A program made the translations under genes and the position numbers. From assembly GCA_036517395.1 (NCBI GenBank), contig DATDWN010000016.1:11262-75261 (forward strand): a DNA stretch of 64,000 nt, given 5' to 3'. Below are positions 1 through 12,809 of the stretch, piece after piece (position 1 is the first letter of the stretch; each line of letters begins with the position of its first letter). Under the pieces are notes generated by a model. The model was not told the DNA's origin. It ran no database searches and saw only the letters and a program-made list of their open reading frames with translations. The stretch is from Minisyncoccota bacterium (GTDB lineage: Bacteria; Patescibacteriota; Minisyncoccia; Phycocordibacterales; DATDWN01).

Positions 1-653
1 TTTATTGTTTATATGTTATAGTTCAAAGAGACTGTCCAACCATCTCTGCTGAACTGCAGGGGCTTGGGTAAAAACCCAAGTAATCTTCCTGAACTGGAGA
101 GGATCATGTTCAATCGAAAAAAGCGTCCTGTGCTCACTGCGACAACTTGCAACGGAATGGAGAACCTGCGTCTAGCAATTGAGGTTCTCACGAGATAGAT
201 ACAAACATGTTTCTAAGCAACCAGCTTTCCTTCGACGATCCCCAGCAAGTTTTTCAAGGAATAGGTAGACCCTATTATTATCCAGAGTCTGCTTTGAAGA
301 AAGGTTATGCCAAGCCGAAGTCGAAAACTTATAGGATTGGGGTTTATAAAAACTATCCAAAATCTTTCGAGAAAGAAATAAAGTTAGTGGGGATAGAATA
401 ATCCTTAGGTAGTTGCATTTCTTGGTTTCTTTATGTATGCTGTCTCTACTTTTGACTTTATGACTTTATGAATTTTAACTAAATTTTTATGTCACAGGAT
501 AGATTAATACCACTAAGAAACAAGGAATCCGGAGACGTCTTCTGGACTTCGAAAAATAAGAAAAAAGTTGAGCGTAAAATTGAGCTCAAAAAATATAGTA
601 AGACGCTTCGAAAAAGAGTGATTTTTAAAGAGGAGAAGTCACCTCTGAAAGCC

Positions 654-2486
654 TTAAAGAAGTAGAACAAAAAATCGCCAAAAGGGTGTTTTTTTGTTAT
701 ATTGGTGATGTATTGGGGGATTAGTTAAGTGGTATAACAGCGCTCTCCAAAAGCACTGTCGGGAGTTCGATTCTTCCATCCCCCGCATTGTAGCGAATGA
801 AGTCTCAAAAGCTTCTTTTTGCCTTGTAGTATAGCCACGCTTTTTAGGTTCGAGCGAAGCAAAGAGGACTTTCTGAGACCGAAGTTCATTTTCAATGAGC
901 AAATACGGATGTATGCGTTCTATATTGAGCTTTTTATCTTTTAGAGTTAGGTTCGAGCCGATGGTAGAAAATATATTACGCTTCTTTTGAATGTCATCTG
1001 TAACAAAGTGTTTTAACGCAAATCTACAGAAATTAAATGTACGCTCTGTTGTCTCTATGGATTGGTCAAATTTTGTTTTTACTTCATTAAGTTCAGTTTC
1101 AATCGCTCCTCTCTCTTTTAACAACCCTCTTTTCTGTTCAAGATATTCGTCTGGTGTATATAACTCATGATTGATATTTTGAGGTGAAGTATATTCTCGA
1201 TGAAGATTTGCGATACGAGTTTGCACATTATCATAAGTGGCTTGCAGTGAGTCACGAATTCTTTTCTCTCCACTTGTAGAGTCATTTTGTTTTTCAGAAA
1301 GATAATCAAGAGCAACTCTTAGATATTCTTCGTCAATCGTTAGACCAGAAAGAACTTCGTTGAATTGTGTATCGAGGTCTTCAAGTTTTATGGACCTCTG
1401 AGTACAGGTTTTACATGGTCTCTTCGTGCAGTGAAAATAAGTGTAGTGAAGAATGGTGGGATTAATCATCTCTGATATATCTGTTTTACATTTTGCACAA
1501 GCAGTTCTGCCTTCATACGCAAATTTGTATTTACATTTTGTACAAATAATCTGATGTTTTTCTTCTGCTGTGATAGTTCCATTACATTCTCCGCACTTAA
1601 TAAGTCCTGTCGCATAGAAATTTCTAGTTTTTGGTTGAGGCTTACCTTGCCTTCCAAGAAGGACCTGTGCTCGCCAGAATTCTTTTTCCGTAATCATTGG
1701 CTGATGATTACCTTTGTATAATTCTTTTTCTCCGGTCTCATCATTCTTCCATTCAAAAGACCCATAGTAAAAAGGTTCTTTGAACATTTCATAAATCTGT
1801 GTACGACTTAATGGCTTACCACCAAGGCGTTTTCTTATTGTTGTTCTTAGCCCCCATTTGGTATTTGCTGTATCAAGGATTTTGGTCACTGAATATGTGC
1901 CTGTGAGAAACAGGTCCCACATTTTTCGGACAATTTCAAAATTTTTCTCATCGGGTACAATAATTTTTTCTCCTTTGTCGCCTTGATTTTTATAACCTAT
2001 TGGAGCAAGGCTTGGTCGCCAACCCTTTGCGACTCTTGAATTCAAGCCTCGCTTAACATTCTTAGAAAGTCTGACCACATAGTCGGTAGCACGACCACCT
2101 TCAATACTCATAAGAAGACCAGCATCTTCTGGATAGAATGAGCGACTTGGAGTTTTAATTACTTTTATGACAGATTTTTGGAGCATCCATTGTAACCGCC
2201 CATTATCAATCGGATTTCGAGATAAGCGGTCAATATCCCAACACAAAAGACCGTCTGCCTCGCCATTTTGAATACGATCTAGCATTTCATTAAAGACTTT
2301 TCGCCCAGGATCCTTTGCACTCTTTTCTTCAGTGAAAGGTGCTTTTGCTAGAAACAATTCTTCACGGTCTGCAATCTGTTTAAGAGCGTCTGTTTGGTCG
2401 CCAATAGATGCAACTTGCCGTTGAGAGTCTTCAGAACTTTTACGACAGTATACGAAGTATTTTATTTTAGTATTATCTTGGGTCAT
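654..2486 (-). CDS. large serine recombinase (resolvase catalytic domain + recombinase domain + zinc ribbon)
   Basis: N-terminus 'YFVYCRKSSEDSQRQVASIGDQ' is the serine-recombinase catalytic motif; downstream 'CGECNGTI...CTKCKYKF' is a Cys4 zinc ribbon; 610 aa. The ORF reads through tRNA-Trp on the opposite strand. Confidence 0.8.
   Translation of the reverse strand: MTQDNTKIKYFVYCRKSSEDSQRQVASIGDQTDALKQIADREELFLAKAPFTEEKSAKDPGRKVFNEMLDRIQNGEADGLLCWDIDRLSRNPIDNGRLQWMLQKSVIKVIKTPSRSFYPEDAGLLMSIEGGRATDYVVRLSKNVKRGLNSRVAKGWRPSLAPIGYKNQGDKGEKIIVPDEKNFEIVRKMWDLFLTGTYSVTKILDTANTKWGLRTTIRKRLGGKPLSRTQIYEMFKEPFYYGSFEWKNDETGEKELYKGNHQPMITEKEFWRAQVLLGRQGKPQPKTRNFYATGLIKCGECNGTITAEEKHQIICTKCKYKFAYEGRTACAKCKTDISEMINPTILHYTYFHCTKRPCKTCTQRSIKLEDLDTQFNEVLSGLTIDEEYLRVALDYLSEKQNDSTSGEKRIRDSLQATYDNVQTRIANLHREYTSPQNINHELYTPDEYLEQKRGLLKERGAIETELNEVKTKFDQSIETTERTFNFCRFALKHFVTDDIQKKRNIFSTIGSNLTLKDKKLNIERIHPYLLIENELRSQKVLFASLEPKKRGYTTRQKEAFETSFATMRGMEESNSRQCFWRALLYHLTNPPIHHQYNKKTPFWRFFVLLL
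715..785 (+). tRNA. tRNA-Trp (anticodon CCA)
   Basis: Hand-folded cloverleaf: acceptor GGGGGAT/ATCCCCC, D-stem GTTA/TAAC, anticodon loop CTCCAAA (CCA at 747-749), T-arm GGGAG-TTCGATT-CTTCC. One C-A mismatch in the anticodon stem; 3' CCA is not encoded. Confidence 0.75.
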
Positions 2487-2880
2487 AAAATATTTTACCT
2501 ATGTTCAGATTATTATTGTCGTCTTCGTACCCATGAATAATTACTTGTAGACCCGCTGTTTCACCTTTCAGGACTAGTCTCTTTATTTCCATGAGTTGAT
2601 TGAATTTATCCTTCCACATTTCTCCATATTGTTCACGCAAGACCCTTTTAACATTTTTTATATCGTCACTATCAACTACTGGTTTCCGACATTCAAAACA
2701 TTCAATTAATCCGCTTTCATTAATTTTGTAATAATGTGTATGTTTCTGACCCTCACAATTTTTTGAAACATACACATCCACATCTTCAACTGATTTTATT
2801 ATAGCTTTTTTCATATAATTTGTATTTAGTTTACTTGGTAATTTATCAATATAAGCAATATATGCTTGCCGAGTTACCAC
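2473..2880 (-). CDS. hypothetical protein (island)
   Basis: 135-aa ORF overlapping the recombinase start by 14 nt; no recognisable motif. Confidence 0.4.
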   Translation of the reverse strand: MVTRQAYIAYIDKLPSKLNTNYMKKAIIKSVEDVDVYVSKNCEGQKHTHYYKINESGLIECFECRKPVVDSDDIKNVKRVLREQYGEMWKDKFNQLMEIKRLVLKGETAGLQVIIHGYEDDNNNLNIGKIFYDPR

Positions 2881-2941
2881 CCTTTAGCCAAGAAGAAAGA
2901 AAGCCAATTCGGCAAAACGGCAACATATTTATTAACTACTA

Positions 2942-4051
2942 CTAAAATAATCCTTTTTCGTCTTCAACTAAGGGTTTTTCTTCTTCTCTTGGTAGAAAGT
3001 ACAGATTTTGCCTGCCTTGCTTAACACAATCAATCATTCCCTCGTTCACCAACTCTATAAGAGCCATCTGAACATTTTTTGTCCCTGCTGTCTTTTTTAA
3101 CATCTCAACCATCTCTCGTTTGGTTTTACTCCCATCAGGAAGAATGTCCAAAATCTTCTCTTTTGCTTCTTCTTTCTTATTCTCTTGGTCCTCAATCTCT
3201 CCACCATAAGTGAGTTCTGTTTTCACTATTTCGTCTTTAACATGGTCCCGTATAATCGTCTTAAAGGGGTTTATTTCCCTTGTGAGACGGTTTTTTCGCT
3301 GGTATACATCTATCTCTTCTCCTCCTGGTTCGCTCTTCAACATAAGCAGTATTTCCACAGAAGCAGTTTTATCTGTGCTTCCGAAGAGAAATTCTTTTTT
3401 TGGAACCTTGCCCTCAAAGTTGGATGGTTTTCTGAAATGGTCTAAGAAAACTACTGCAACACCCTTATCCTTTAAGATTTTAAGCCTATTAAAGAAGGTT
3501 CTAATTTCATCTGCTTTTTCTTCTTTTATTCCACCTGCAACTGCTCTGAATGTGTCTAGAAATACAACTTTAATATCATAGTAATCAATAACATTTAATA
3601 ACCAGTCAACCCCTCTATCTTCATTGAGGTCTAACTCTGTATCACTATAGACTAAAATCTTTTTGTTAGTTTCACTAAATCCTAATTGTTTTCCTCTTCG
3701 TTGTGCTTCACTTTGCGACATCTCCATGTCGACATAGAGAACATTTCCTGCTTCAGTTTTGAAATCTTTGTTACCAAGAAAATCAATTCCTAATGCGATA
3801 CAACGAGCCATCTCCATCGCAAACCAAGTTTTCTTTTCTCCTGTAACAGAAGCTAGTATGACAAAACCTTCATATGGAATGAGATTTTGGACCAACCATC
3901 TTTGTTTGGAAAATTCTTTATTATCTAGAGTTGTCCAATGCATAGGTTCAAAGAAATGTTTCTCAACTTTTCTTTCTGCTCTTTTATATCCTGCATCCAA
4001 ACCTCTTTCCATAGAAAAATCTTTGAATGTTTGGTTTCTATTTTCCTCCAT
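2942..4051 (-). CDS. RecA-like AAA_25 / RepA-type replication ATPase with C-terminal wHTH
   Basis: Walker-A-like 'SVTGEKKTW', 'YVDMEMSQSEAQRRGKQLGF' and 'VFLDTFR' motifs resemble plasmid/phage RepA-primase-associated ATPases; the C-terminus is wHTH-like. Confidence 0.55.
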   Translation of the reverse strand: MEENRNQTFKDFSMERGLDAGYKRAERKVEKHFFEPMHWTTLDNKEFSKQRWLVQNLIPYEGFVILASVTGEKKTWFAMEMARCIALGIDFLGNKDFKTEAGNVLYVDMEMSQSEAQRRGKQLGFSETNKKILVYSDTELDLNEDRGVDWLLNVIDYYDIKVVFLDTFRAVAGGIKEEKADEIRTFFNRLKILKDKGVAVVFLDHFRKPSNFEGKVPKKEFLFGSTDKTASVEILLMLKSEPGGEEIDVYQRKNRLTREINPFKTIIRDHVKDEIVKTELTYGGEIEDQENKKEEAKEKILDILPDGSKTKREMVEMLKKTAGTKNVQMALIELVNEGMIDCVKQGRQNLYFLPREEEKPLVEDEKGLF

Positions 4052-4220
4052 AATTTTTTGGGATTATTACCTCCTTTGGATTTAAGTGACTTGTTATTGT
4101 ACTAACGAGGCACACTAATTTTTCAAAATACTCAAGAGCCAACTCATCTGATAGAGTCGTTTTGTTTTTAAGCTCGTATAGCTTCCTTACCCTCTGGATG
4201 TACTTCGTTTTATCGACCAA
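4038..4220 (-). CDS. small hypothetical protein (possible excisionase/HTH-like)
   Basis: 60-aa ORF upstream of the ATPase gene. Confidence 0.25.
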   Translation of the reverse strand: MVDKTKYIQRVRKLYELKNKTTLSDELALEYFEKLVCLVSTITSHLNPKEVIIPKNYGGK

Positions 4221-4318
4221 AATAAAAACCCATTCCTAGTTTTGCGGACTACTTGGAGGTTATCCGCAAAACCCGAAATAGGTTAAAGGTTCTCCAAGTA
4301 CAAACACCTACAAAAACA

Positions 4319-4345
4319 ACCGCCTAAAGCGGTGTTTTCTTGCAC
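4319..4345. terminator. bidirectional hairpin (CCGCCTAAAGCGG) followed by a T-run on both strands
   Basis: Stem CCGC/GCGG with TGTTTTCTTG downstream on the + strand and TTGTTTTTG on the - strand. Confidence 0.35.
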
Positions 4346-4791
4346 ATTAATATCAAGTGACAAGAAGACAGTAGCTTTTTAGCTAAACTGAATTTGTCCC
4401 TAGTGAGGTGCCGGTAGCTAGTGCGATGGCGACTGGTATAGTCTTGGAGCCTGTGCTGATGCTGGTGGCTATGAGGGGTGTTTTCTAAACTGAAAATGAA
4501 TTAACCAAAGTATATATCTGTCAAAAAATAAGTCAATCCTATTATCCACCACCTTGAATAAAAGTAATTACTCTGACATGATTAAATTACAACTTAATAA
4601 AAAGTTGACCTAACCCCCATAGTTTTCTGTGGGATATGGTCAAAAACCGGTAAGAGACAAAGAACCCATCATATAGGGCTACTCTTACCGGTCCCTGCGG
4701 GAAACTGCAGGTGGAGGACCTCGGTCCTCACCTATGTGGTGGGCTTTTTGTGTCCAAAATACGAATTATTTTTATTATTAAATAAATTATT

Positions 4792-5013
4792 ATGTATAGT
4801 ATAAAACTACTTCTTGCTATGACTGTTTTTACTTTTTTAAGTTACATGGTTCTTCCTACACTTGTTAAAAAATTACGATTAAAAGACAGTGAAAAAATGA
4901 AGAATAGTTTACCAGTAACCGCAAATGCCAAAGCCGGGTTATTTATTTTAGCAGGAATTATTGGATTATTTTTTATTATTTATATCTTTGGCACAATACT
5001 AGGTTGGGACTAG
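4792..5013 (+). CDS. small membrane protein (2 TM)
   Basis: 73-aa hydrophobic ORF. Confidence 0.35.
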   Translation: MYSIKLLLAMTVFTFLSYMVLPTLVKKLRLKDSEKMKNSLPVTANAKAGLFILAGIIGLFFIIYIFGTILGWD

Positions 5014-5134
5014 TATTTAGTAGATCAAAAAATATTAAAATAATTGCTAGATAAATATTGACTTGTGTTTATATATATTGAGGAGTAACATATGAATACT
5101 TGATTATTAACAAATTACTAATAAAGATACACCT

Positions 5135-5635
5135 ATGTTTTGCGAACATTGTGGAACAAAAATAGAAGGAGGTGCTCAATTCTGCCAAAATTGTGGTAAG
5201 ACAACTTCGGGGACTACCAAAACCACTCCATCAACAAACCCAATTTCTGATCCAGCTGAGGTAAAAACTGAAGCAATAGTTAAATGTGGAAATTGTGATT
5301 ATGTCGGTCCTGGAGAACCAGCGAGATCACCAGGTGCGATTTTTCTAGCTTGGGTTTGTATTGTTATTGCATGGCCAATTACTGTCCTTTATTTTGCAAC
5401 AACTCATAAATATCGATGCCCAAAATGTAAATCAACATTTCTGGGAATTAAGGATAAAGAAGGAAAATTTACGGCTCCAAGTGGTGGTAATAAAAGTCCA
5501 GTAATGATACTTGTTTGGGTTCTTTTAGTAATAGCCATAATCGGCATTCTTTCGTCTGTTGTACTTGCTTCATTGAATACAGCTCGTGAAAAAGGAAGGC
5601 AAGCACAAGAACAAAGTTCAGGACAATATAAGTAA
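5135..5635 (+). CDS. zinc-ribbon domain membrane protein with pilin-like C-terminal helix
   Basis: N-terminal 'CEHCG...FCQNCG' double CxxCG ribbon; a second CxxC pair; C-terminal 'LLVIAIIGILSSVVLASLNTAREKGRQAQ' resembles a pilin/pseudopilin N-helix. Confidence 0.6.
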   Translation: MFCEHCGTKIEGGAQFCQNCGKTTSGTTKTTPSTNPISDPAEVKTEAIVKCGNCDYVGPGEPARSPGAIFLAWVCIVIAWPITVLYFATTHKYRCPKCKSTFLGIKDKEGKFTAPSGGNKSPVMILVWVLLVIAIIGILSSVVLASLNTAREKGRQAQEQSSGQYK

Positions 5636-5641
5636 AAGATT

Positions 5642-6547
5642 ATGTACTGTAAAAACTGTGGCACTAAATCAGATGGTATAAAAAAATTCTGCACTAAATG
5701 CGGTAAAGAATTCTCTAAATCTGACAACGCAAAAGAAAATACAAATTCAGCTCAATCAGCACCAAGCTTTTCACAGACTCCAAGCGAGTCCTCATGGAGT
5801 CCGGGGAGAATAATCGGCATAATTATTGTTCTAGCTTTTATTGGATGGAGTGTATATAGCTCTCAAGATGATGCTGTTGTTGAAAAGAATAACAATGCCA
5901 TAACAGCTTTCGACTCTGGAAATAGTGATCAAGCGATTACCCAATTCCAAGAAGCATCAAAAGATGCAGTGACAAATGATAATAAAATTAATACCTTAAA
6001 AAATCTTGCTTATGTATATTCTTCTAAGGGACAAAATGATTTAGCGATAAGTACATTCAAACAGGCTCTTGCGTTAACTTCAGGAGACTCCTTCGATTAC
6101 TATTTGATTGCTGGAGAAATTGCCATCCTTGAAAATAAGCCGAATTCAGCACAGATATCTTATAATAAAGCATACGAAAAAAACCCTAATGATTTTCAAA
6201 TCAACAATGCTCTCGCTCTTTTCTATCTTGATATAGAGGGTATTGCACCTCAATATGCTGATTATAAAAAAGCTGTTCAATATGCACTAAGAGCGACACA
6301 ACTTACTGATTTACAGTTAGCCAAGCAAAATCTTGGCTTAGCTTATTACTTTAATGAAAACTATCCTCAGGCAATATCGACTTTTAGTAATCTCACTTTG
6401 GACAAAGACTCAACTACTGCATATTGGTTAGGTTTGTCATATGCGAGAAATGGCGATCCGACAAATGCGAAATTTTATCTAAGGAAAGCTATCGCTAATG
6501 GGGTAGATGTACCTCAGGAGGTTTATGATTATATAAATTCAAATTAA
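5642..6547 (+). CDS. zinc-ribbon + TM + TPR-repeat protein
   Basis: N-terminal 'CKNCG...FCTKCG', one TM helix, then TPR-like repeats (LAYVYSSKGQ..., LGLSYARNGD...). Confidence 0.6.
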   Translation: MYCKNCGTKSDGIKKFCTKCGKEFSKSDNAKENTNSAQSAPSFSQTPSESSWSPGRIIGIIIVLAFIGWSVYSSQDDAVVEKNNNAITAFDSGNSDQAITQFQEASKDAVTNDNKINTLKNLAYVYSSKGQNDLAISTFKQALALTSGDSFDYYLIAGEIAILENKPNSAQISYNKAYEKNPNDFQINNALALFYLDIEGIAPQYADYKKAVQYALRATQLTDLQLAKQNLGLAYYFNENYPQAISTFSNLTLDKDSTTAYWLGLSYARNGDPTNAKFYLRKAIANGVDVPQEVYDYINSN

Positions 6548-6548
6548 T

Positions 6549-6941
6549 ATGTACTGCGAACATTGTGGAACAAAAATAGATAAGTCACATAAATTCTGTA
6601 CTAAATGTGGAAATGCAACTGACCCTGCACAAGTAAAGGCCACCGTGACACAACATCCTGTATTAGCACTTAATGACAAGTGGTGGCACCGACTCCTAAA
6701 AGTTTTATATATCATTGTATATTTTCCGTTGTTAGGTATTGTTCCAATGGTTTGGAGTTCAAATGTTCCATATTGCTATGCTTCTTATTCATGCTATGGC
6801 TCATATAGCGAGGCTTTTTGGTACTCAGTTCTCACTTTGGTTATTTATGTAGTGACAATTAGATTAATCAAGATTGCTGTTATATATGTGGCTTTTGGTC
6901 GAAAAGCTGAATGGAAAAAGGAGTTTAAGAAACCTTTCTAA
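6549..6941 (+). CDS. zinc-ribbon domain membrane protein
   Basis: N-terminal 'CEHCG...FCTKCG' followed by TM helices. Confidence 0.55.
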   Translation: MYCEHCGTKIDKSHKFCTKCGNATDPAQVKATVTQHPVLALNDKWWHRLLKVLYIIVYFPLLGIVPMVWSSNVPYCYASYSCYGSYSEAFWYSVLTLVIYVVTIRLIKIAVIYVAFGRKAEWKKEFKKPF

Positions 6942-6945
6942 ATTT

Positions 6946-7410
6946 ATGATCATTTTTGGTTGGGGATTTCAGACAATTAAAAACTTTGGTCCGGCTTTTA
7001 AGAACCTTTGTAGTCATTGTAATAATGAACAGTACTGGGTTCTGACGAGGATCATGACATGGTTTACATTATTTTTTATTCCGATATTTCCATATGAAAT
7101 TACATATCGCCTATCATGTCCTGTATGCAAATATGGACTTACATTAAACCAGAAGCAAGTCAGTGAGATAAAACCGCTTGCTGAGTTAAATCAACTACTT
7201 GTTGAAGGCCAAATCACTCAAGAAGAATATCAAGTTCGGCTAAATCGACTCAATGATGGACCTTCTGAACCAATTGAAGCAGAAATTGTAGAAACTAAGG
7301 CTTTAACTGAAAATGTATCCAGCCTGAGCTACTGTGCAAGCTGTGGGGGCAAGGTTACAGAAGAATTAAGGTTTTGTGGAAATTGTGGAACTCCTACTAC
7401 AACAAAATAA
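6946..7410 (+). CDS. membrane protein with C-terminal zinc ribbon
   Basis: ATG at 6946 directly after the previous stop (the track ORF starting at 6874 overlaps in another frame). C-terminal 'YCASCGG...FCGNCG'. Confidence 0.5.
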   Translation: MIIFGWGFQTIKNFGPAFKNLCSHCNNEQYWVLTRIMTWFTLFFIPIFPYEITYRLSCPVCKYGLTLNQKQVSEIKPLAELNQLLVEGQITQEEYQVRLNRLNDGPSEPIEAEIVETKALTENVSSLSYCASCGGKVTEELRFCGNCGTPTTTK

Positions 7411-7413
7411 TTT

Positions 7414-8361
7414 ATGTTTTGCAAAAATTGTGGCAATGAAATAAAACAAGGAATTAAATTTTGCACTAAATGTGGAAAAGAAAGTTTGCCTATCCAAATC
7501 CCTATTAAAACTAAGTATAAAATACTGTTAAAAAACAAACTGAAGAAATTTCATCAGTTTTTAACAAAGAAAAAATTGATTATTGGGTGGGTCACACTTA
7601 CCATCCTAGTTCTAGGTGCATACTTTATATATACAAAAGGAAAACATAAGATACCGACAGCTGATCAAATACAGAAAGATATTGCGTCTGTTGTTGTAAA
7701 TATCTATTGCGAAGGATCCAATGGGTGGGATGACGAAACTCAAATATCTGGTGGCTCAGGTACTATTATTACTACTGATGGTCTTGTACTTACAAATGCA
7801 CATATAATTCCGCAAGGTAAAGACGAAAGCCTTTACGATAAAAGTTGTTTAGTAAGCCTTCCCGATCCAACAACAGGAGCTTCAAAGGAAATATATTATG
7901 CGAGACCTATTGTGGTCCCAGATATAAGTGAGAAATATGACCTCGCTTTCCTACAAATAGATGATGTTTATTATGATGAAGCAGAAGATAAATTTTATGG
8001 TGAATACCCTAAAGTATTTCCTGCGTATGATGATGAAAAATATTGTAAGGCAGAGGATGTAAAGCTTGGTGAACCAGTTAGAATATATGGTTACCCTGCA
8101 ATAAGTGGTGGATATGCACTCACTATTACTGACGGTATAGTTAGTAGTCTACTCCCAAAATCTGGATACATTATAACTTCTGCAAAAATTAGTCATGGAA
8201 ATTCTGGTGGTCTTGCAGTTGATCAATATGGGTGCAGAATTGGAGTACCATCAATGGTTAGCGGTGATGATTATGAGAGTTTAGGGGTCATCATTTCAAA
8301 CAATCTTATATATGATTTCACGGAGGAAATAAGAACCATATTAAATACTACAGACAACTAA
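7414..8361 (+). CDS. zinc-ribbon + TM + trypsin-like (S1) serine protease domain protein
   Basis: N-terminal 'CKNCG...FCTKCG', TM, 'TDGLVLTNAHI' (His) and 'GNSGG' (Ser) S1 motifs. Confidence 0.65.
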   Translation: MFCKNCGNEIKQGIKFCTKCGKESLPIQIPIKTKYKILLKNKLKKFHQFLTKKKLIIGWVTLTILVLGAYFIYTKGKHKIPTADQIQKDIASVVVNIYCEGSNGWDDETQISGGSGTIITTDGLVLTNAHIIPQGKDESLYDKSCLVSLPDPTTGASKEIYYARPIVVPDISEKYDLAFLQIDDVYYDEAEDKFYGEYPKVFPAYDDEKYCKAEDVKLGEPVRIYGYPAISGGYALTITDGIVSSLLPKSGYIITSAKISHGNSGGLAVDQYGCRIGVPSMVSGDDYESLGVIISNNLIYDFTEEIRTILNTTDN

Positions 8362-9272
8362 TGAATAATTCTAATACTAAAGAACTTGTTATAGGAATAG
8401 TTATTTTAGTCATCTCAGCTTCAAGTCTGCTTATTAAAAGTATTCCTATTATATGGATCGGAGGTTTTATTTGGGGAGGTAGCATGATAGCTAAAGCATT
8501 AAATAACAAAAAACAATATTCTTTTCGGACCACAGAAATTGAAAAAGAAATAATAACATGTGATAACTGTAAACAAAAAATAAGAGTGCCAAAAGACAGA
8601 CAAAGATTTATCAATATTACTTGTCCCCATTGTAAAGAGAGTCCATTTTTGAGTTTATCTGATAGATTTCATAGAAGTCCTAGAAAAACAAAATTGCTTT
8701 GGATTGGAGGTCTAATTTTTGTAATCCTTGTATTTACATATGTGATATTCAAAAGTGGAAATTCTGTTACCACTCCACCTGTAACCCCAGTAGTCGCAAC
8801 CACAATAACACCTCAAAAGACTCAACAACCCTCAATAGTTCCAACCCCAACTAATATAGTTTCTTTTTCAAACGGAGAGTTTCTTACTAAAAATTCTTAC
8901 TATTTACAAGGATCAGGAAACTTAGAAATTAGAAATGGAACCAATAATAACGCAGTAGCGAAACTTGTGAGTACGGTTACAGACAAATCAGTGGCGACTG
9001 TCTATATTGGAGCAAATAACACTTACACCTTAAAAAATATTTCTAATGGAAGTTACAGATTGGTTTTTAACTTAGGTCACGATTGGGATACCATAAGTAA
9101 AAAGTTTACAAGAAATTCTAGCTACTCGGTTTTTGAGGAGAATTTCGACTATACAACAAGATCATCTAGCGATGGCTACTACTACCGAACATTTGAAGTT
9201 ACCCTAAACCCAGTTATTGGTGGGACAGCTGAAACTAATGATATAAACCAAGAAGAGTTTAGTGCTTACTAG
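8361..9272 (+). CDS. membrane protein with internal zinc ribbon (CDNC...CPHC) and Pro/Thr-rich linker
   Basis: TM helices, 'CDNCKQKIRVP...CPHCKE', PT-rich segment, C-terminal beta-rich domain. Confidence 0.5.
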   Translation: MNNSNTKELVIGIVILVISASSLLIKSIPIIWIGGFIWGGSMIAKALNNKKQYSFRTTEIEKEIITCDNCKQKIRVPKDRQRFINITCPHCKESPFLSLSDRFHRSPRKTKLLWIGGLIFVILVFTYVIFKSGNSVTTPPVTPVVATTITPQKTQQPSIVPTPTNIVSFSNGEFLTKNSYYLQGSGNLEIRNGTNNNAVAKLVSTVTDKSVATVYIGANNTYTLKNISNGSYRLVFNLGHDWDTISKKFTRNSSYSVFEENFDYTTRSSSDGYYYRTFEVTLNPVIGGTAETNDINQEEFSAY

Positions 9273-9339
9273 CCACACTCTCGGCCAGGACCATCCATTG
9301 GTCTAGGTAAGTCTTTAATGCTAAACTCAACTTATTACA

Positions 9340-10185
9340 ATGAAAAAATATTTCCTAATTATTATTTTAATAATACTAGTAATTCCATCCGTCACTTTTG
9401 CTTCTTGGTGGAACCCTTTCACTTGGAAAGTCCCTGTTAAAAATAAATCTTCCCAAACAGTACCAGCTCGGCTAGCCACTACGACTCAAGCTAAAAGTGA
9501 GATTGAAGAATTAAAAAATCAACTCAAATTAGAAAGTGAAAAACGCCAAGAATTAGAAAAGAAAATTCAAACTACAAAGGAAAGTCCAAAAACTAAGACC
9601 CAGACAGTTTCTCCGCAACCATCTACATCAGTCCAAAAACCAGTAGAACAAAAAACCTTCACTACACCCAGTGGTAGTGTTATAGACTCCAGTGGAAATG
9701 TAATATCAACACCTAAAATAGACCAGACACAAACAACCGTTCAGCCCACTAGCGACCCAACCATAGGTCCTCGCTATTATGACTCTAAAAAAACTTGTAT
9801 CGGTCTCTCAGGTAGTCAATACTCTGATTGTGTAAACTATGCATTTAGCCCTCAAGTGCAACAAAAAGAAACTCAGCAAAACACGCAACAAAGGACTACT
9901 CAAGGTGAGACGATGTCCTACACTGAGGGAGCTAGGGCGAGAGCACAACAGGATTTAGTTACAGAATATAATAATGCTAAAGCTTATATAGACCAACAAA
10001 TTATTGATATAAAAAATAAGTATTATTTAGACCTAGAACAGAATAACAACCGAGCAGTTCCAATGTCTTTTATAGAAGGAATGGCACAAAAATTACTTAC
10101 AGATGCAAATAATAAAATTAATAAACTTATACTTCAGCAACAACAATTACAGCTTGATTATCAAATAAAACTAAATAATTTATAG
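9340..10185 (+). CDS. secreted coiled-coil / Q-rich protein
   Basis: Signal peptide, 'EIEELKNQLKLESEKRQELEKK' coiled coil, Q/T-rich. Confidence 0.45.
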   Translation: MKKYFLIIILIILVIPSVTFASWWNPFTWKVPVKNKSSQTVPARLATTTQAKSEIEELKNQLKLESEKRQELEKKIQTTKESPKTKTQTVSPQPSTSVQKPVEQKTFTTPSGSVIDSSGNVISTPKIDQTQTTVQPTSDPTIGPRYYDSKKTCIGLSGSQYSDCVNYAFSPQVQQKETQQNTQQRTTQGETMSYTEGARARAQQDLVTEYNNAKAYIDQQIIDIKNKYYLDLEQNNNRAVPMSFIEGMAQKLLTDANNKINKLILQQQQLQLDYQIKLNNL

Positions 10186-10194
10186 ATACTGAAT

Positions 10195-10539
10195 ATGAAA
10201 AAATTAACTTTATTAATAGCATTATTCTGTTTCACTTTCTTTCCCTTAGTTTCTTTTGCTCACCCAGGAAGGACAGACTCATCAGGTTGCCACACCTGCA
10301 AGACTAATTGCCCTAATTGGGGGCTATCATATGGAGAGTATCATTGTCATAACTCCAAAGGCACTACCCAGCCCAAAGAGCCTATAAAGAGCACTTATGG
10401 GGCAAATGGGACCGGTTCCGTTTCTCCAGCTCCTGAGTATAAGACACCAAAGGTGGAGGCAGTTAAAACTAATACTCAAACAAGTGCGAAGACTGCAGAA
10501 AAAAGTAATTGGTTCACTCGATTATTTAGTTGGCTTTAA
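10195..10539 (+). CDS. small secreted Cys/His-rich protein
   Basis: Signal peptide; 'CHTCKTNCPNW...YHCH'. Confidence 0.45.
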   Translation: MKKLTLLIALFCFTFFPLVSFAHPGRTDSSGCHTCKTNCPNWGLSYGEYHCHNSKGTTQPKEPIKSTYGANGTGSVSPAPEYKTPKVEAVKTNTQTSAKTAEKSNWFTRLFSWL

Positions 10540-10796
10540 TAATTAATATGGAAAAGATAAAACAACAAAAATATGTAATTTTAATATCACTAATAATATT
10601 AGGGTTTGTTTTTTATTGGTTTGAATTAAGACCAAATAATATTAGAAAAGAGTGTATAAAAACTTATCCTGATGCTTTTAGAATACCGACTGATGATAAC
10701 GGTATTGGTCGTTTAATAAGTGTCGGTAACTATAAAGGTAGTATTGATAAAGCAGGTTATGAAAAATGTCTACGGGAAAATGGTTTAGATAGATAA
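10530..10796 (+). CDS. small membrane-anchored hypothetical protein
   Basis: 88-aa ORF with an N-terminal TM helix. Confidence 0.35.
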   Translation: MALIINMEKIKQQKYVILISLIILGFVFYWFELRPNNIRKECIKTYPDAFRIPTDDNGIGRLISVGNYKGSIDKAGYEKCLRENGLDR

Positions 10797-10802
10797 AATT
10801 AT

Positions 10803-11114
10803 ATGAGAATTAATAAAATATTATCAATAGTATCTGGAGTAATGCTTCTACTGGCAATTCCATCTATGTGGCCATATGGTTATTATCAATTACTTCGATG
10901 GGTAGTCTCAATAGTCGGAATTTCTAACGCTTATCAGACTTATAAATTAAATTCAAAAGGTTGGGCAATAACAATGGTAGTTATAGCTATTCTTTTTAAT
11001 CCCATAGAACCATTAATTTTCTCAAAAGGAACTTGGATTTTATTTGATTTAGCTACAGCTTTTATTATGTTTACGATGTCGTCTAAATTCAAAAATGAAG
11101 TAATAAAAAATTAA
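10803..11114 (+). CDS. small membrane protein
   Basis: 103 aa, 3 predicted TM helices. Confidence 0.4.
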   Translation: MRINKILSIVSGVMLLLAIPSMWPYGYYQLLRWVVSIVGISNAYQTYKLNSKGWAITMVVIAILFNPIEPLIFSKGTWILFDLATAFIMFTMSSKFKNEVIKN

Positions 11115-11119
11115 TTAAT

Positions 11120-11305
11120 ATGAGAAACTTAATAGCACTTATATCTACAGAAGGAAAGTCTCCGGAACAAATTAAAAAAGAGACAGTTTTGGCATTTCAA
11201 AAATATCAGGAAGTAAAAAGCCAAGTTGAAAAGCAATTAAAAGAAACCCAAAAGGAAGTGAGATCACAGATAGTCTTTATTCCGAAGTTTGTCCCAAAAA
11301 AATAG
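11120..11305 (+). CDS. small charged hypothetical protein
   Basis: 61-aa K/E-rich ORF. Confidence 0.3.
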   Translation: MRNLIALISTEGKSPEQIKKETVLAFQKYQEVKSQVEKQLKETQKEVRSQIVFIPKFVPKK

Positions 11306-11595
11306 GATTTTAGAAAGAGTCGTCATTCATAGATGTCTGTACATCAAAATGAACTTTTACCTCCTAAAAACTCTTCTAAAATGCTGTATTACTTCAAAAA
11401 TGTGGATAACTTGACCTTTTTATGTATGTGGAATAGTATAATGAACCTACACGAATGTACCGTGCTCTATAATTCCTTACGGTACACATACACAAATAAT
11501 TATGTTTTCTTGCCACTTTTTTCTGATAAAGAGAAAAAAGTCTGCGGTCTCCGTGAGGAGCTCTTTTTTATTATATAAAATTTCGGCGTAAGATG

Positions 11596-11698
11596 TGAGC
11601 TGGATAGGACTCGAACCTATATCATGACCTTAGAATGGTCAGCCCTGGGGAGGGTATAGTTTTCAAGACTACTGTTCTATCCATTGAACTACCAGCCC
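11596..11698 (-). tRNA. atypical tRNA, anticodon UGA (Ser-like) with extra hairpin; ~103 nt
   Basis: Reverse complement folds: acceptor GGGCTGG/CCAGCTC, D-arm GTTC-AATGGATA-GAAC, anticodon arm GTAGT-CTTGAAA-ACTAT, variable hairpin CCCT-CCCC-AGGG, an additional TGACC-ATTCTAA-GGTCA hairpin, T-arm ATAGG-TTCGAGT-CCTAT. Confidence 0.55.
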
Positions 11699-12757
11699 AC
11701 ATCCTACTCCAAAATTTGGAGTAGAGAAAAACCAATTAAAGTTTTTTCTTTTTATCAGAAGTGCCTTTCTTCTTTGCGGGAGGGGGCATTTTCTGTTTTT
11801 CCTCGTCAACTTCAAAACAAAACGCTCTCAGACCTTTTTCCCATGCATAAAGTATTTTTCCGTTACGCAAAGTAATAAAAGGTCTACATATGAGTGTAGC
11901 CACTTTATTTTATCTATCTGTATCCTAATAATGCCTTTGCTCTTTAGGCGAGCCGTTACGGCTGACACAATTTTCCGTTGGTATAGTTTAGATTACTTAT
12001 TATATAGCTAATCTTATAAACCCAACTCGGCTTTTTGCTTTAGGAACGATTTAGTGGACAGCACTCTGGGAGTTACCCCTCAAGTTTACACCTGGGAAAG
12101 TTTCCTTCCCCAAAATGCTTTCCACCAAATCTTTCAAAAAACATCTTGTCGAGTGCTGTCCACCAATGACTTATTCATCGGTACCATAATTATACTACAT
12201 ACAGTTTTCATTGCAAATAAAATTTCAATATAAAGTTGTGGACAGCCCAAAAAATCAGAAAAATAAAAAATAGATTTTGACTAATCTGTTTTTATAGAAA
12301 AGCTTGGGTAGGGTATGTACCCCCCCACCCCAAAAACACCCTTTATTGCATGGGATGACCTATTGGCGGTATTTCCTCACCACCCCCTGCCAAAGTCGGG
12401 GGTAGATGCACCTCCACCCCCTGGACCATATACGAAGCTTGGAGCGTGTTATGTTAAGATTGGTACATAAAACATTGTGTTTTGGCTCTCATACCAAGTT
12501 CTAACAGCCTCAACAGTGTTCCGCATATACGACGAACCCCACGCGCTCAGCTTACGCGTGGGGACAGGCTGGTAGCTCTCAGGAGAACAGTGATACTACC
12601 AACCATCGAAGAAGGAACGGGAAACCGAAGACGATCACTATGGTCATGATGACCATGCCAAGCAGTAGGGCTTGGCCGTCATGCTCAGTGCAAGACTCGG
12701 GACTGGTCACAATTACCCTCCACTATTCTTTTTACTACAAAACCAATTTTTAATCAA

Positions 12758-12788
12758 CCCTGTAGTGAGTTTCGCTCTACTACGGGGC
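12758..12788. repeat. family B (CCCTGTAGT...ACTACGGGG) element, short copy upstream of miaA
   Basis: CCCTGTAGTGAGTTTCGCTCTACTACGGGG. Confidence 0.6.
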
Positions 12789-12809
12789 AAGGAATCTCTT
12801 AATTTCTCT

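Follow-up and report, generated by a model that had tools for sequence, protein, structure and literature searches.

In Lactococcus lactis, two membrane-located proteins, designated Llmg_0524 and Llmg_0526, bind zinc through an N-terminal CX2CX10CX2C motif (PMC4628341). They are encoded with a small hydrophobic protein in a co-transcribed operon, llmg_0524-0525-0526, and influence lysozyme and peroxide sensitivity and cell-wall integrity; Llmg_0526 resembles TcaA of Staphylococcus aureus (PMC4628341). Here we analyzed a 64,000-nt stretch of the Minisyncoccota bacterium contig DATDWN010000016.1 (called the window below), in which six consecutive genes, g1 to g6 (5135-9272), encode proteins with a zinc-ribbon motif. 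g2, g3 and g5 have the same N-terminal CX2CX10CX2C spacing as Llmg_0524/0526 and TcaA, followed, as in those proteins, by predicted transmembrane (TM) segments and a putative extracellular part. In both cases several motif proteins and a small hydrophobic protein are encoded in one operon. The window operon differs, however, in its number of ribbon proteins (five to six, against two in L. lactis) and in its defined ectodomains (HtrA-like protease, tetratricopeptide repeats (TPR), a pilin stub and Zn_ribbon_15). It is also carried by a Patescibacteria integrative element, with a structured RNA, LOOT, at its head.

Patescibacteria (candidate phyla radiation, CPR), to which this ultrasmall bacterium belongs, account for a large part of bacterial diversity. 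Living on the surface of other cells, they depend on type IV pili (T4P) for attachment, motility and DNA uptake. To our knowledge, almost nothing is known about the cargo of their mobile elements. The domains described here are already known, and the N-terminal zinc "prefix" of membrane proteins has a small experimental literature. Nothing specific was found in the searchable literature on the five-to-six-gene cassette, on Zn_ribbon_15, on the ribbon-pilin fusion or on the genomic context of LOOT. To that extent the conserved cassette, its carriage across Patescibacteria on elements with a large serine recombinase (LSR) at a tRNA gene, the fusion, and the association with LOOT are new.

A block of adjacent zinc-ribbon genes

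A six-frame scan of the whole window with the strict motif C..CG-x(8-12)-[FYW]C..CG returned exactly five matches, all of which lay inside the plus-strand genes g1-g5 (5135-8361). These genes are adjacent and nearly abutting (Table 1). Five strict motifs in 64 kb, all in one block, excluded chance. The motif occupies residues 3-21 in g1, g2, g3 and g5, whose N-termini read M-[FY]-C-x-x-C-G-x10-F-C-x-x-C-G, and lies at the C-terminus in g4.

A first-pass annotation of this block had taken the ribbons to be homologous, and profile searches supported this for four of the proteins. Zn_Ribbon_1 (PF13240; gathering score 25 bits) reached 27.5 bits on g1, 27.4 bits on g3 and 28.8 bits on g5, and DZR (PF12773; gathering score 27.3 bits) reached 28.1 bits on g4. 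The g2 ribbon, identical in its CX2CX10CX2C spacing, scored 17.0 bits, below the Pfam threshold. A sequence search of the bare ribbon against the PDB gave only ribosomal and RNA polymerase zinc-ribbon matches, none of them significant. In g6, the internal ribbon that had been pointed out earlier was found as CxxC-x17-CxxC. The Cys4 motif, and a positive-inside bias that is partial, suggest that the ribbons bind zinc and that the N-termini are cytoplasmic.

Consecutive genes from g1 to g6 are spaced by 6, 1, 4, 3 and -1 nt, and no terminator-like site was found on the plus strand between 4743 and 11642. With such gaps and no internal terminator, g1-g6 together with the downstream genes g7-g11 looks like one transcription unit, and 5135-9272 looks like the core of a single operon of ~4.75-11.3 kb. 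An earlier start of g4 at TTG 6874, overlapping g3, had to be given up: 16 orthologues fixed the start at ATG 6946 (MIIFGWG...), so that g3 and g4 do not overlap.

Hydropathy analysis placed a single TM segment behind the ribbon of g2 and of g5. It predicted two TM segments for g3 and none for g4, and in g1 it indicated a hairpin plus a C-terminal TM segment. The layout of ribbon, TM helix and ectodomain claimed in the first-pass annotation was thus retained for g2 and g5, but not for g4. Its extracytoplasmic-type effector domains were recovered as the HtrA-like protease, TPR (TPR_2 in g2, 2e-17) and pilin; g3 has no effector domain.

Conservation of the cassette across Patescibacteria

Loci were fetched around homologues of the window proteins, and the window proteins were mapped on their open reading frames (ORFs). 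This gave 61 non-redundant CPR loci (fetched contigs are numbered L002 and so on). Among 56 non-redundant CPR loci with a g5 homologue, at least one more ribbon gene was adjacent to it in 51, and at least four cassette genes were contiguous in 31. The genes are therefore in tandem, and not scattered, in related genomes as well. The order ribbon-variable/pilin-like, ribbon-TPR, ribbon-2TM, Zn_ribbon_15 with C-terminal ribbon, and ribbon-protease was present in roughly one third of the 61 loci. It was kept at 45-72% identity in L007, L014, L015, L016, L021, L023, L024, L053, L095, L096 and others. g2 orthologues showed 45-70% identity at 100% coverage in many loci.

Each orthologue has its own ribbon signature, such as FCQxCG in g1 and FCGNCG in g4. 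Over 15 variable ribbon positions, identity was 51% between orthologues of different genomes versus 30% between paralogues of the same genome, and the nearest neighbour of a ribbon was the same orthologue in 54 of 59 cases. The genes also co-diverge, the pairwise divergences of g2, g3, g4 and g5 being correlated with r = 0.63-0.80. The array had been described as one of tandem paralogues. The tandem arrangement stands, but the members are not recent paralogues, since the part they share is only the ~20-residue ribbon and the ribbons group by orthologue. As judged from these comparisons, the cassette is an ancient operon, inherited as a unit, whose genes belong to different families but have one tag in common.

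That the ribbons arose by recent tandem duplication or evolved in concert was considered and rejected: ribbon DNA is only ~65-80% alike, with third-position changes, and the ribbons cluster by orthologue.

The titles of several TPA_asm records of metagenome-assembled genomes in which this CPR-type cassette was found read "uncultured Gammaproteobacteria", "Bdellovibrionales" or "archaeon" (L014, L024, L029, L036-L038, L042 and others). These contigs are probably mis-binned or mislabelled, and their organism names are therefore not trustworthy.

A predicted membrane-tethered HtrA-like protease

The trypsin-like protease noticed earlier in g5 matched Trypsin_2 with 63 bits (6.6e-17). Its best matches in the PDB and NCBIfam were HtrA, DegS and DegQ, and against the HtrA-type NCBIfam equivalog it scored 47 bits, not reaching the cut-off of 416. 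g5 shares with HtrA/DegS (S1C) the Trypsin_2 fold and the His-Asp-Ser triad, and has an N-terminal membrane anchor as in DegS. It differs from them in having a ribbon ahead of the anchor and four conserved cysteines in the protease domain, and in lacking a PDZ domain: a search for PDZ in g5 gave no match, and the protein stops ~30 residues past the protease domain. In an alignment of 31 diverse g5 homologues, H130, D176, S264, the four ectodomain cysteines and MFCxxCG...FCxxCG were invariant, and the protease is accordingly predicted to be catalytically intact. More than 770 homologues were found, nearly all combining the ribbon with Trypsin_2; those with a source name were mostly labelled Patescibacteria, and an identical g5 protein is annotated as Candidatus Paceibacterota.

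Some relatives of g5 carry additional parts. A four-TM module is inserted between ribbon and protease in L036, L039 and L067. C-terminal Cys-rich CxCxxGYxW repeats are present in L053, L058 and L060, and L072 has an SH3/Ig-like (adhesin-like) tail. By domain composition, the ribbon-protease family is itself modular. Cys-rich repeats, SH3/Ig-like tails and extra TM modules would fit an extracytoplasmic protease.

The TPR-adaptor/protease pairs NlpI-Prc and LbcA-CtpA carry out targeted envelope proteolysis, and pneumococcal HtrA degrades DNA-uptake proteins. As in NlpI-Prc and LbcA-CtpA, a TPR protein (g2) and a serine protease (g5) are encoded together and would both lie outside the cytoplasmic membrane, which by analogy suggests adaptor-directed proteolysis. 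The protease is of type S1 here and S41 there, however; the anchors are ribbon-TM segments here and lipoprotein anchors there, and there is no sequence relationship past the generic TPR fold.

From the analogy to these pairs and to pneumococcal HtrA, we propose targeted surface proteolysis. The cassette is a recurrent element-borne gene set consisting of envelope proteins only, and we consider the chances about even that it encodes an envelope proteolysis or remodelling complex whose members act together at the envelope. The shared ribbons would then be a common cytoplasmic handle, which either brings the subunits together in one assembly or attaches them to a single partner. g2 would serve as TPR scaffold or adaptor and g5 as the protease, with g3 and g4 as small zinc-ribbon subunits and the g1 slot as a variable targeting subunit. 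Outside the membrane, the TPR-protease pair would cleave surface structures in a targeted way or remodel them. The outcome may be altered adhesion, DNA uptake or phage/element entry, favouring the element. Five partners in one operon share the prefix, which speaks for a role in docking or assembly that is common to them. The CX2CX10CX2C prefix is present on thousands of membrane proteins from Gram-positive and CPR bacteria, TcaA among them, and its purpose is thereby made testable. Genetic tools exist for some Saccharibacteria, so that questions on the cassette are open to experiment.

Several points weigh against such a complex. The positive-inside bias was clear only in g5 (7 versus 4 K/R) and g3, and neutral in g2. 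In an AlphaFold2 (AF2) model of g4, residues 5-66 form beta strands, and g4 may not be membrane-integral. Both AF2 models made, of g4 and of P0147, a relative of g1 described below, were of moderate confidence, and fold searches with them gave no matches. What the analysis shows are the motif and domain identities, the catalytic residues, the synteny and co-divergence of the genes, their mobile-element context and the descent of g1 from a pilin; topology, complex formation, substrate and benefit to the element are inferred.

The resemblance of g5 to DegS and HtrA could also point to transmembrane signalling by regulated proteolysis. g5 would then be a DegS-like site-1 protease that cleaves ribbon-bearing anti-sigma-like or sensor proteins, and the freed ribbons would act in the cytoplasm. 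Zinc-finger-TM architectures exist in sigma factors of the extracytoplasmic function (ECF) group ECF52, the L011 element contains a Sigma70_r2 gene, and L095 has an ECF sigma gene in its vicinity. However, neither the window island nor most cassettes contain a sigma factor, kinase or response regulator, the ribbon differs from the HxxxCxxC anti-sigma (ZAS) motif, and no output domain is evident in a ribbon of 20 residues. We regard signalling as a very unlikely function.

An anti-phage defence (abortive-infection) system with a protease effector would agree with the carriage on mobile islands, and PADLOC gave two weak matches to the g5 protease domain, one with the protease part of RT-Protease_XI (3.9e-10) and one with LmuA (2e-4). 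These matches concern the generic trypsin fold only, and PADLOC matched none of the other genes. Known protease effectors of defence act in the cytoplasm, whereas an extracytoplasmic location is predicted for the g5 protease, which has conserved Cys pairs and, in relatives, Cys-rich repeat extensions. We consider a defence function extremely improbable. A known defence system was rejected as a candidate, PADLOC having given generic matches to the g5 protease domain only.

A zinc-ribbon-pilin fusion

The pilin-like helix ascribed to g1 in the first-pass annotation was confirmed: residues 126-162 aligned with residues 11-47 of a bona fide prepilin with 54% identity over 37 residues (E=3e-9). g1 is therefore a type IV pilin derivative. 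In this alignment, Trp128 of g1 takes the place of the prepilin Glu5. g1 is without Gly-1, Phe/Met+1 and Glu+5 of type IV pilins, and N_methyl (PF07963) matched neither g1 nor any relative, nor was a class III signal peptide found. The window protein stops 6 residues past the helix, without a globular head domain or C-terminal disulfide loop.

The g1 family comprises short forms of ~165 aa, such as the window copy, and long forms of 240-286 aa. In the long forms, the helix is followed by the pilin-typical AR.KARDAKRISD..Q...ELY... and a C-terminal Cys pair. The pilin part of one long form, P0191, matched GspG (5wda) in the PDB with E=3e-7, and also geopilin and PilA, aligned from mature residue 3-4. 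Another long form, P0147 of locus L094, is encoded directly 3' of a canonical prepilin (KG|FTLVE; N_methyl 38 bits), to which it is 50% identical (E=5e-50). Compared with PilA and GspG, g1 has a homologous alpha-1 helix and its long-form relatives have the full head and the C-terminal Cys pair, but the N-terminus is a ~115-residue zinc-ribbon plus Zn-hairpin module. From these alignments it is deduced that the leader and first residues of a pilin were replaced by a ribbon and a split zinc module, and that the head was lost in the island copy.

In the AF2 model of P0147, the helix is 56 residues long and the second Zn module forms a helical hairpin with a short beta hairpin on either side (pLDDT 83-93); the head was of low confidence, and a Foldseek search with it gave no match. 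P0147 is the last gene of a chromosomal T4P operon at L094 2914-10807 (PilM, three unknown genes, PilB, PilC, prepilin). This zinc-ribbon/Zn-hairpin-pilin fusion appears to be an undescribed T4P-associated component in Patescibacteria.

Gly-1 and Glu5 of pilins have established roles in PilD processing and filament entry. From these roles, g1 would insert into the membrane like a pilin, but would be uncleavable by PilD and not extractable into the filament. In the proposed envelope complex, the window g1 would thus fill the targeting slot with a pilin helix that can be neither processed nor polymerised, and this pilin stub might direct or couple the complex to the T4P or the pilin pool. We consider this pilus-specific part of the proposal doubtful. 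The first slot of the cassette is variable and pilin-like in only part of the cassettes, so the pilus link is not a universal function; only the g1 family shows it; and cassettes near T4P genes were found in 3 of the 61 loci, which is no enrichment. Given this and the variable first slot, the link is a lead for g1 and not proof for the operon. It raises the question whether a pilin stub that cannot be cleaved, together with a tethered protease, serves the mobile elements of epibiotic bacteria to manipulate pili or competence.

Carriage on integrative elements

The first-pass annotation had placed the genes on an island, and this was borne out by base composition, a recombinase gene, a tRNA junction and contig breaks. 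GC content is ~0.35 at 1-12000 versus 0.40-0.45 in the rest of the window. An LSR gene lies at the left junction, where its ORF (610 aa; ~510-530 aa elsewhere) continues through tRNA-Trp and enters the end of rpmG. The independent contig L002 begins at window position 734, inside tRNA-Trp, and the breaks of L002 and L003 at 734 and 12575/12617 (~12.6 kb) suggest an element of ~11.9 kb. A duplicated 3' fragment of tRNA-Trp was looked for at the right island end, and no convincing copy was found.

The 3' end of the LSR gene overlapped a tRNA gene convergently in all 10 loci with both features; outside the window the tRNAs were Gln, Glu, Asp, Leu and Asn. This overlap with readthrough suggests that crossover takes place inside the recombinase gene and that integration alters its C-terminus. 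Myxococcus phage Mx8 intP and SSV-type integrases likewise have attP inside the integrase gene and target tRNA genes. As in those elements, the recombinase ORF crosses the tRNA junction and integration would change its 3' end, but the window enzyme is an LSR and not a tyrosine integrase.

The replication modules beside the cassette vary: AAA_25 was found in the window and L052, a DnaG-type zinc-ribbon protein in L007, and Phage_rep_O with a tyrosine integrase in L095. An LSR gene was present within +-10 kb in 14 of the 61 loci, and its orientation put the cassette inside the element in 12 of the 14. In the reading that we hold to be about as likely as not, the cassette is the conserved cargo module of a family of small LSR/tRNA integrative elements of Patescibacteria. 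Speaking against it, the orientation in L009 and L064 leaves the cassette outside the LSR-bounded segment, and an LSR was seen in only about a quarter of the loci, many of which are short contigs.

The cassette could instead be an ordinary chromosomal operon for envelope quality control, made up of an HtrA-type protease with helpers, that lies near integration hot spots and uses the ribbons as a functionally neutral anchor common to CPR and Firmicute membrane proteins. Membrane proteins with an N-terminal CX2CX10CX2C motif are indeed widespread (TcaA, Llmg_0524/0526 and "4Cys prefix" domains), L022 and L096 have cassettes beside housekeeping genes with no recombinase in view, and relatives of g1 were seen in chromosomal surroundings too (L094, L099). 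Such an operon is, however, difficult to reconcile with the patchy distribution of the cassette, with ~112 matches among 185,579 species genomes, and with 57-72% identity across distant CPR classes. Against it are also the position in a low-GC island with contig breakpoints and the recurrence in LSR/tRNA elements with unrelated replication modules. We consider it unlikely.

The element itself could also be an unrecognised membrane-enveloped virus, similar to plasmaviruses or pleolipoviruses, or a vesicle-borne element, and the cassette its module for morphogenesis, egress or entry. The cytoplasmic ribbons would tether the nucleic acid of the element under the membrane, and the ectodomains would be spikes or entry factors. 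Zinc ribbons are typical nucleic-acid binders. The element of ~11.9 kb has two divergent blocks, of which only the membrane-protein block is conserved and the replication modules are swapped; pleolipoviruses have the same combination of a conserved membrane-protein block and interchangeable replication modules. At several loci the block begins with a Cro/XRE-type helix-turn-helix (HTH) gene or faces a divergent HTH_3 gene. On the other side, the conserved block contains no ATPase, capsid-like gene or Zot/pI, the only ATPase being AAA_25, and an active HtrA-type protease with a TPR protein would be unusual for virions. The cassette was absent from the INPHARED phages and PLSDB plasmids and gave one weak match (28% identity) in IMG/VR. 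Cassettes also occur without visible element genes. This makes an enveloped virus, and ribbons tethering its nucleic acid, very improbable.

In its widest form, the cassette would be the hallmark of unrecognised membrane-bound virus-like or vesicle-transmitted ~12 kb elements of Patescibacteria that integrate at tRNA genes via a serine recombinase, which we hold to be highly improbable. Under that assumption, the ribbons may tether the element genome or LOOT RNA beneath the membrane, and the protease, TPR and pilin-mimic ectodomains may serve exit from the donor and entry through the T4P or competence machinery of the recipient.

A conventional prophage or inovirus was rejected for the window island, because it has no structural, capsid or Zot/pI genes, its only ATPase is AAA_25, and it is absent from the phage, IMG/VR and PLSDB collections.

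LOOT RNA at the operon head

A full-length LOOT RNA (RF03000) was found on the coding strand 62 nt upstream of g0, the first ORF of the operon, in the gap between the divergent replication and membrane blocks. LOOT was detected, with covariance models built here, in 11 of the ~61 non-redundant CPR loci, and with the same models in none of the Chloroflexi control loci. It was on the cassette strand in 11 of 11 loci and at the 5' edge of the block in 9 of 11; in L007 and L053 it lies 49-72 nt ahead of the first ribbon gene. Across the 11 loci, 30 of 37 base pairs showed compensatory changes, and 91% were paired versus 64% in shuffles. A conserved G-rich GGTGGGCTTTTTG element with a T-run follows LOOT in all 11 loci, which suggests that LOOT is either a leader with a terminator or a small RNA (sRNA) transcribed ahead of the operon.

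Rfam lists LOOT (RF03000) as an sRNA of unknown role. Beyond what that entry gives, LOOT in the present loci consistently heads the ribbon operon and lies on its coding strand, a context not mentioned in the searchable literature. The genomic context of this orphan RNA is thereby defined, and it may act as leader or regulator of the cassette or be an sRNA of the element. In other elements, a first gene of 68-73 aa, HTH-like of Cro/XRE type as judged by eye, occupies the position of LOOT. With either LOOT or an HTH-like gene at the block head, the operon head may be a regulatory slot for an RNA or an HTH protein.

Other genes and features

The coordinates of all features are listed in Table 1.

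Table 1. Features of the window and corresponding features in other loci.
Feature	Position	Strand	Description
LSR	654-2486	-	610-aa ORF; Resolvase 1.1e-19, Recombinase 2.4e-9, weak Zn_ribbon_recom
tRNA-Trp(CCA)	715-786	+	left island junction; ARAGORN and Rfam
AAA_25 replication protein	2942-4051	-	RepA/DnaB-like; AAA_25 1.5e-29; PHROG helicase/primase families
LOOT RNA (RF03000)	4607-4729	+	full-length; 71.8 bits versus gathering score 46.4
Terminator-like hairpin plus T-run	4727-4753	+	directly after LOOT
g0	4792-5013	+	73 aa; two hydrophobic segments; first ORF after LOOT
g1	5135-5635	+	166 aa; N-terminal ribbon, split Zn module, headless type IV pilin alpha-1 helix
g1 ribbon motif	5141-5197	+	
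g1 split Zn module	5285-5428	+	residues 51-98; C51xxC54 ... C95xxC98 around hydrophobic hairpin
g1 pilin alpha-1 helix	5492-5614	+	residues ~120-160
g2	5642-6547	+	301 aa; ribbon, one predicted TM (residues 57-75), predicted extracytoplasmic TPR domain
g2 ribbon motif	5648-5704	+	
g3	6549-6941	+	130 aa; ribbon, two predicted TM segments, Cys/Tyr-rich loop, basic tail GRKxEWKKEFKKxF
g3 ribbon motif	6555-6611	+	
g4	6946-7410	+	154 aa; Zn_ribbon_15 family, C-terminal ribbon
g4 ribbon motif	7333-7389	+	
g5	7414-8361	+	315 aa; ribbon, Lys-rich linker, predicted TM (residues 55-73), PDZ-less HtrA/DegS-like serine protease
g5 ribbon motif	7420-7476	+	
g5 catalytic triad, H130	7801-7803	+	
g5 catalytic triad, D176	7939-7941	+	
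g5 catalytic triad, S264	8203-8205	+	
g6	8361-9272	+	303 aa; hydrophobic N-terminus, internal ribbon, predicted TM (residues 112-130)
g6 internal ribbon	8559-8633	+	residues 67-91
g7	9340-10185	+	secreted coiled-coil/Q,T-rich protein
g8	10195-10539	+	small secreted Cys/His-rich protein, motif HPGRTDSSGCHTCKTNCPNWG...YHCH; without Pfam match
g9	10548-10796	+	
g10	10803-11114	+	DUF6804 membrane protein
g11	11120-11305	+	
LSR/tRNA overlap, window	654-786		
LSR/tRNA overlap, L007	814-887		
LSR/tRNA overlap, L009	1819-1891		
LSR/tRNA overlap, L019	1803-1878		
LSR/tRNA overlap, L023	5432-5504		
LSR/tRNA overlap, L027	214-299		
LSR/tRNA overlap, L048	1076-1148		
LSR/tRNA overlap, L050	8936-9010		
LSR/tRNA overlap, L052	1294-1369		
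LSR/tRNA overlap, L054	10431-10505		
LOOT, L007	7477-7593		
LOOT, L016	8263-8381		
LOOT, L019	5456-5578		
LOOT, L024	6653-6760		
LOOT, L041	514-624		
LOOT, L046	560-678		
LOOT, L052	5148-5262		
LOOT, L053	2312-2445		
LOOT, L060	9063-9183		
LOOT, L069	550-666		
HTH-like ORF, L014	51-272		
HTH-like ORF, L016	3350-3571		
HTH-like ORF, L023	7444-7665		
HTH-like ORF, L064	3379-3600		
HTH-like ORF, L028	256-462		
HTH-like ORF, L029	105-311		

Residues 3-67 of g2 weakly matched the NCBIfam TcaA model (E=5e-4, 18.9 bits; equivalog cut-off 550). g4 matched Zn_ribbon_15 (PF17032) with 51.6 bits (threshold 28.9) over profile positions 2-73 of 73. Its N-terminal CxxC...CxxC domain is beta-rich and includes a very hydrophobic hairpin; SHOCT-like helices come next, then a disordered linker and finally the C-terminal ribbon. 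Homologues of g4 numbered 182, of ~154 aa, and all 120 of the 182 that were listed contain PF17032. Behind its predicted TM segment, g6 has a Thr/Pro linker and a conserved beta-rich ectodomain ending in ...GGTAETN..FxAY, and in 7 loci the orthologues of g6 combine a ribbon at the N-terminus with this second, internal one. No homologue of g0 was detectable apart from identical contigs.

In the left block of the island, the minus strand contains two further ORFs of 135 aa and 60 aa. Near the right end, still inside the island, a tRNA-like gene was found on the minus strand at 11596-11698 (Rfam tRNA 61 bits, anticodon UGA). It has a 32-nt insertion in the variable region and was missed by ARAGORN. 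It may be a tRNA-Ser with an unusually long arm, a tRNA gene that is interrupted, or a relic related to att. Between this gene and miaA, ~1.1 kb (11700-12800) is without a plausible ORF and has a GC content above that of the island, with poly-C/G tracts around 12300-12420. The 11.7-12.8 kb stretch gave no Rfam match, and folding z-scores for 12290-12720 were -1.6 on the plus and -2.6 on the minus strand.

Among the genes downstream of g6, g8 may be a metal-binding surface protein, as its Cys/His-rich motif suggests. Homologues of g10 were found alongside the cassette in 11 other loci, either 5' or 3' of it, and g10 may thus be part of an extended module.

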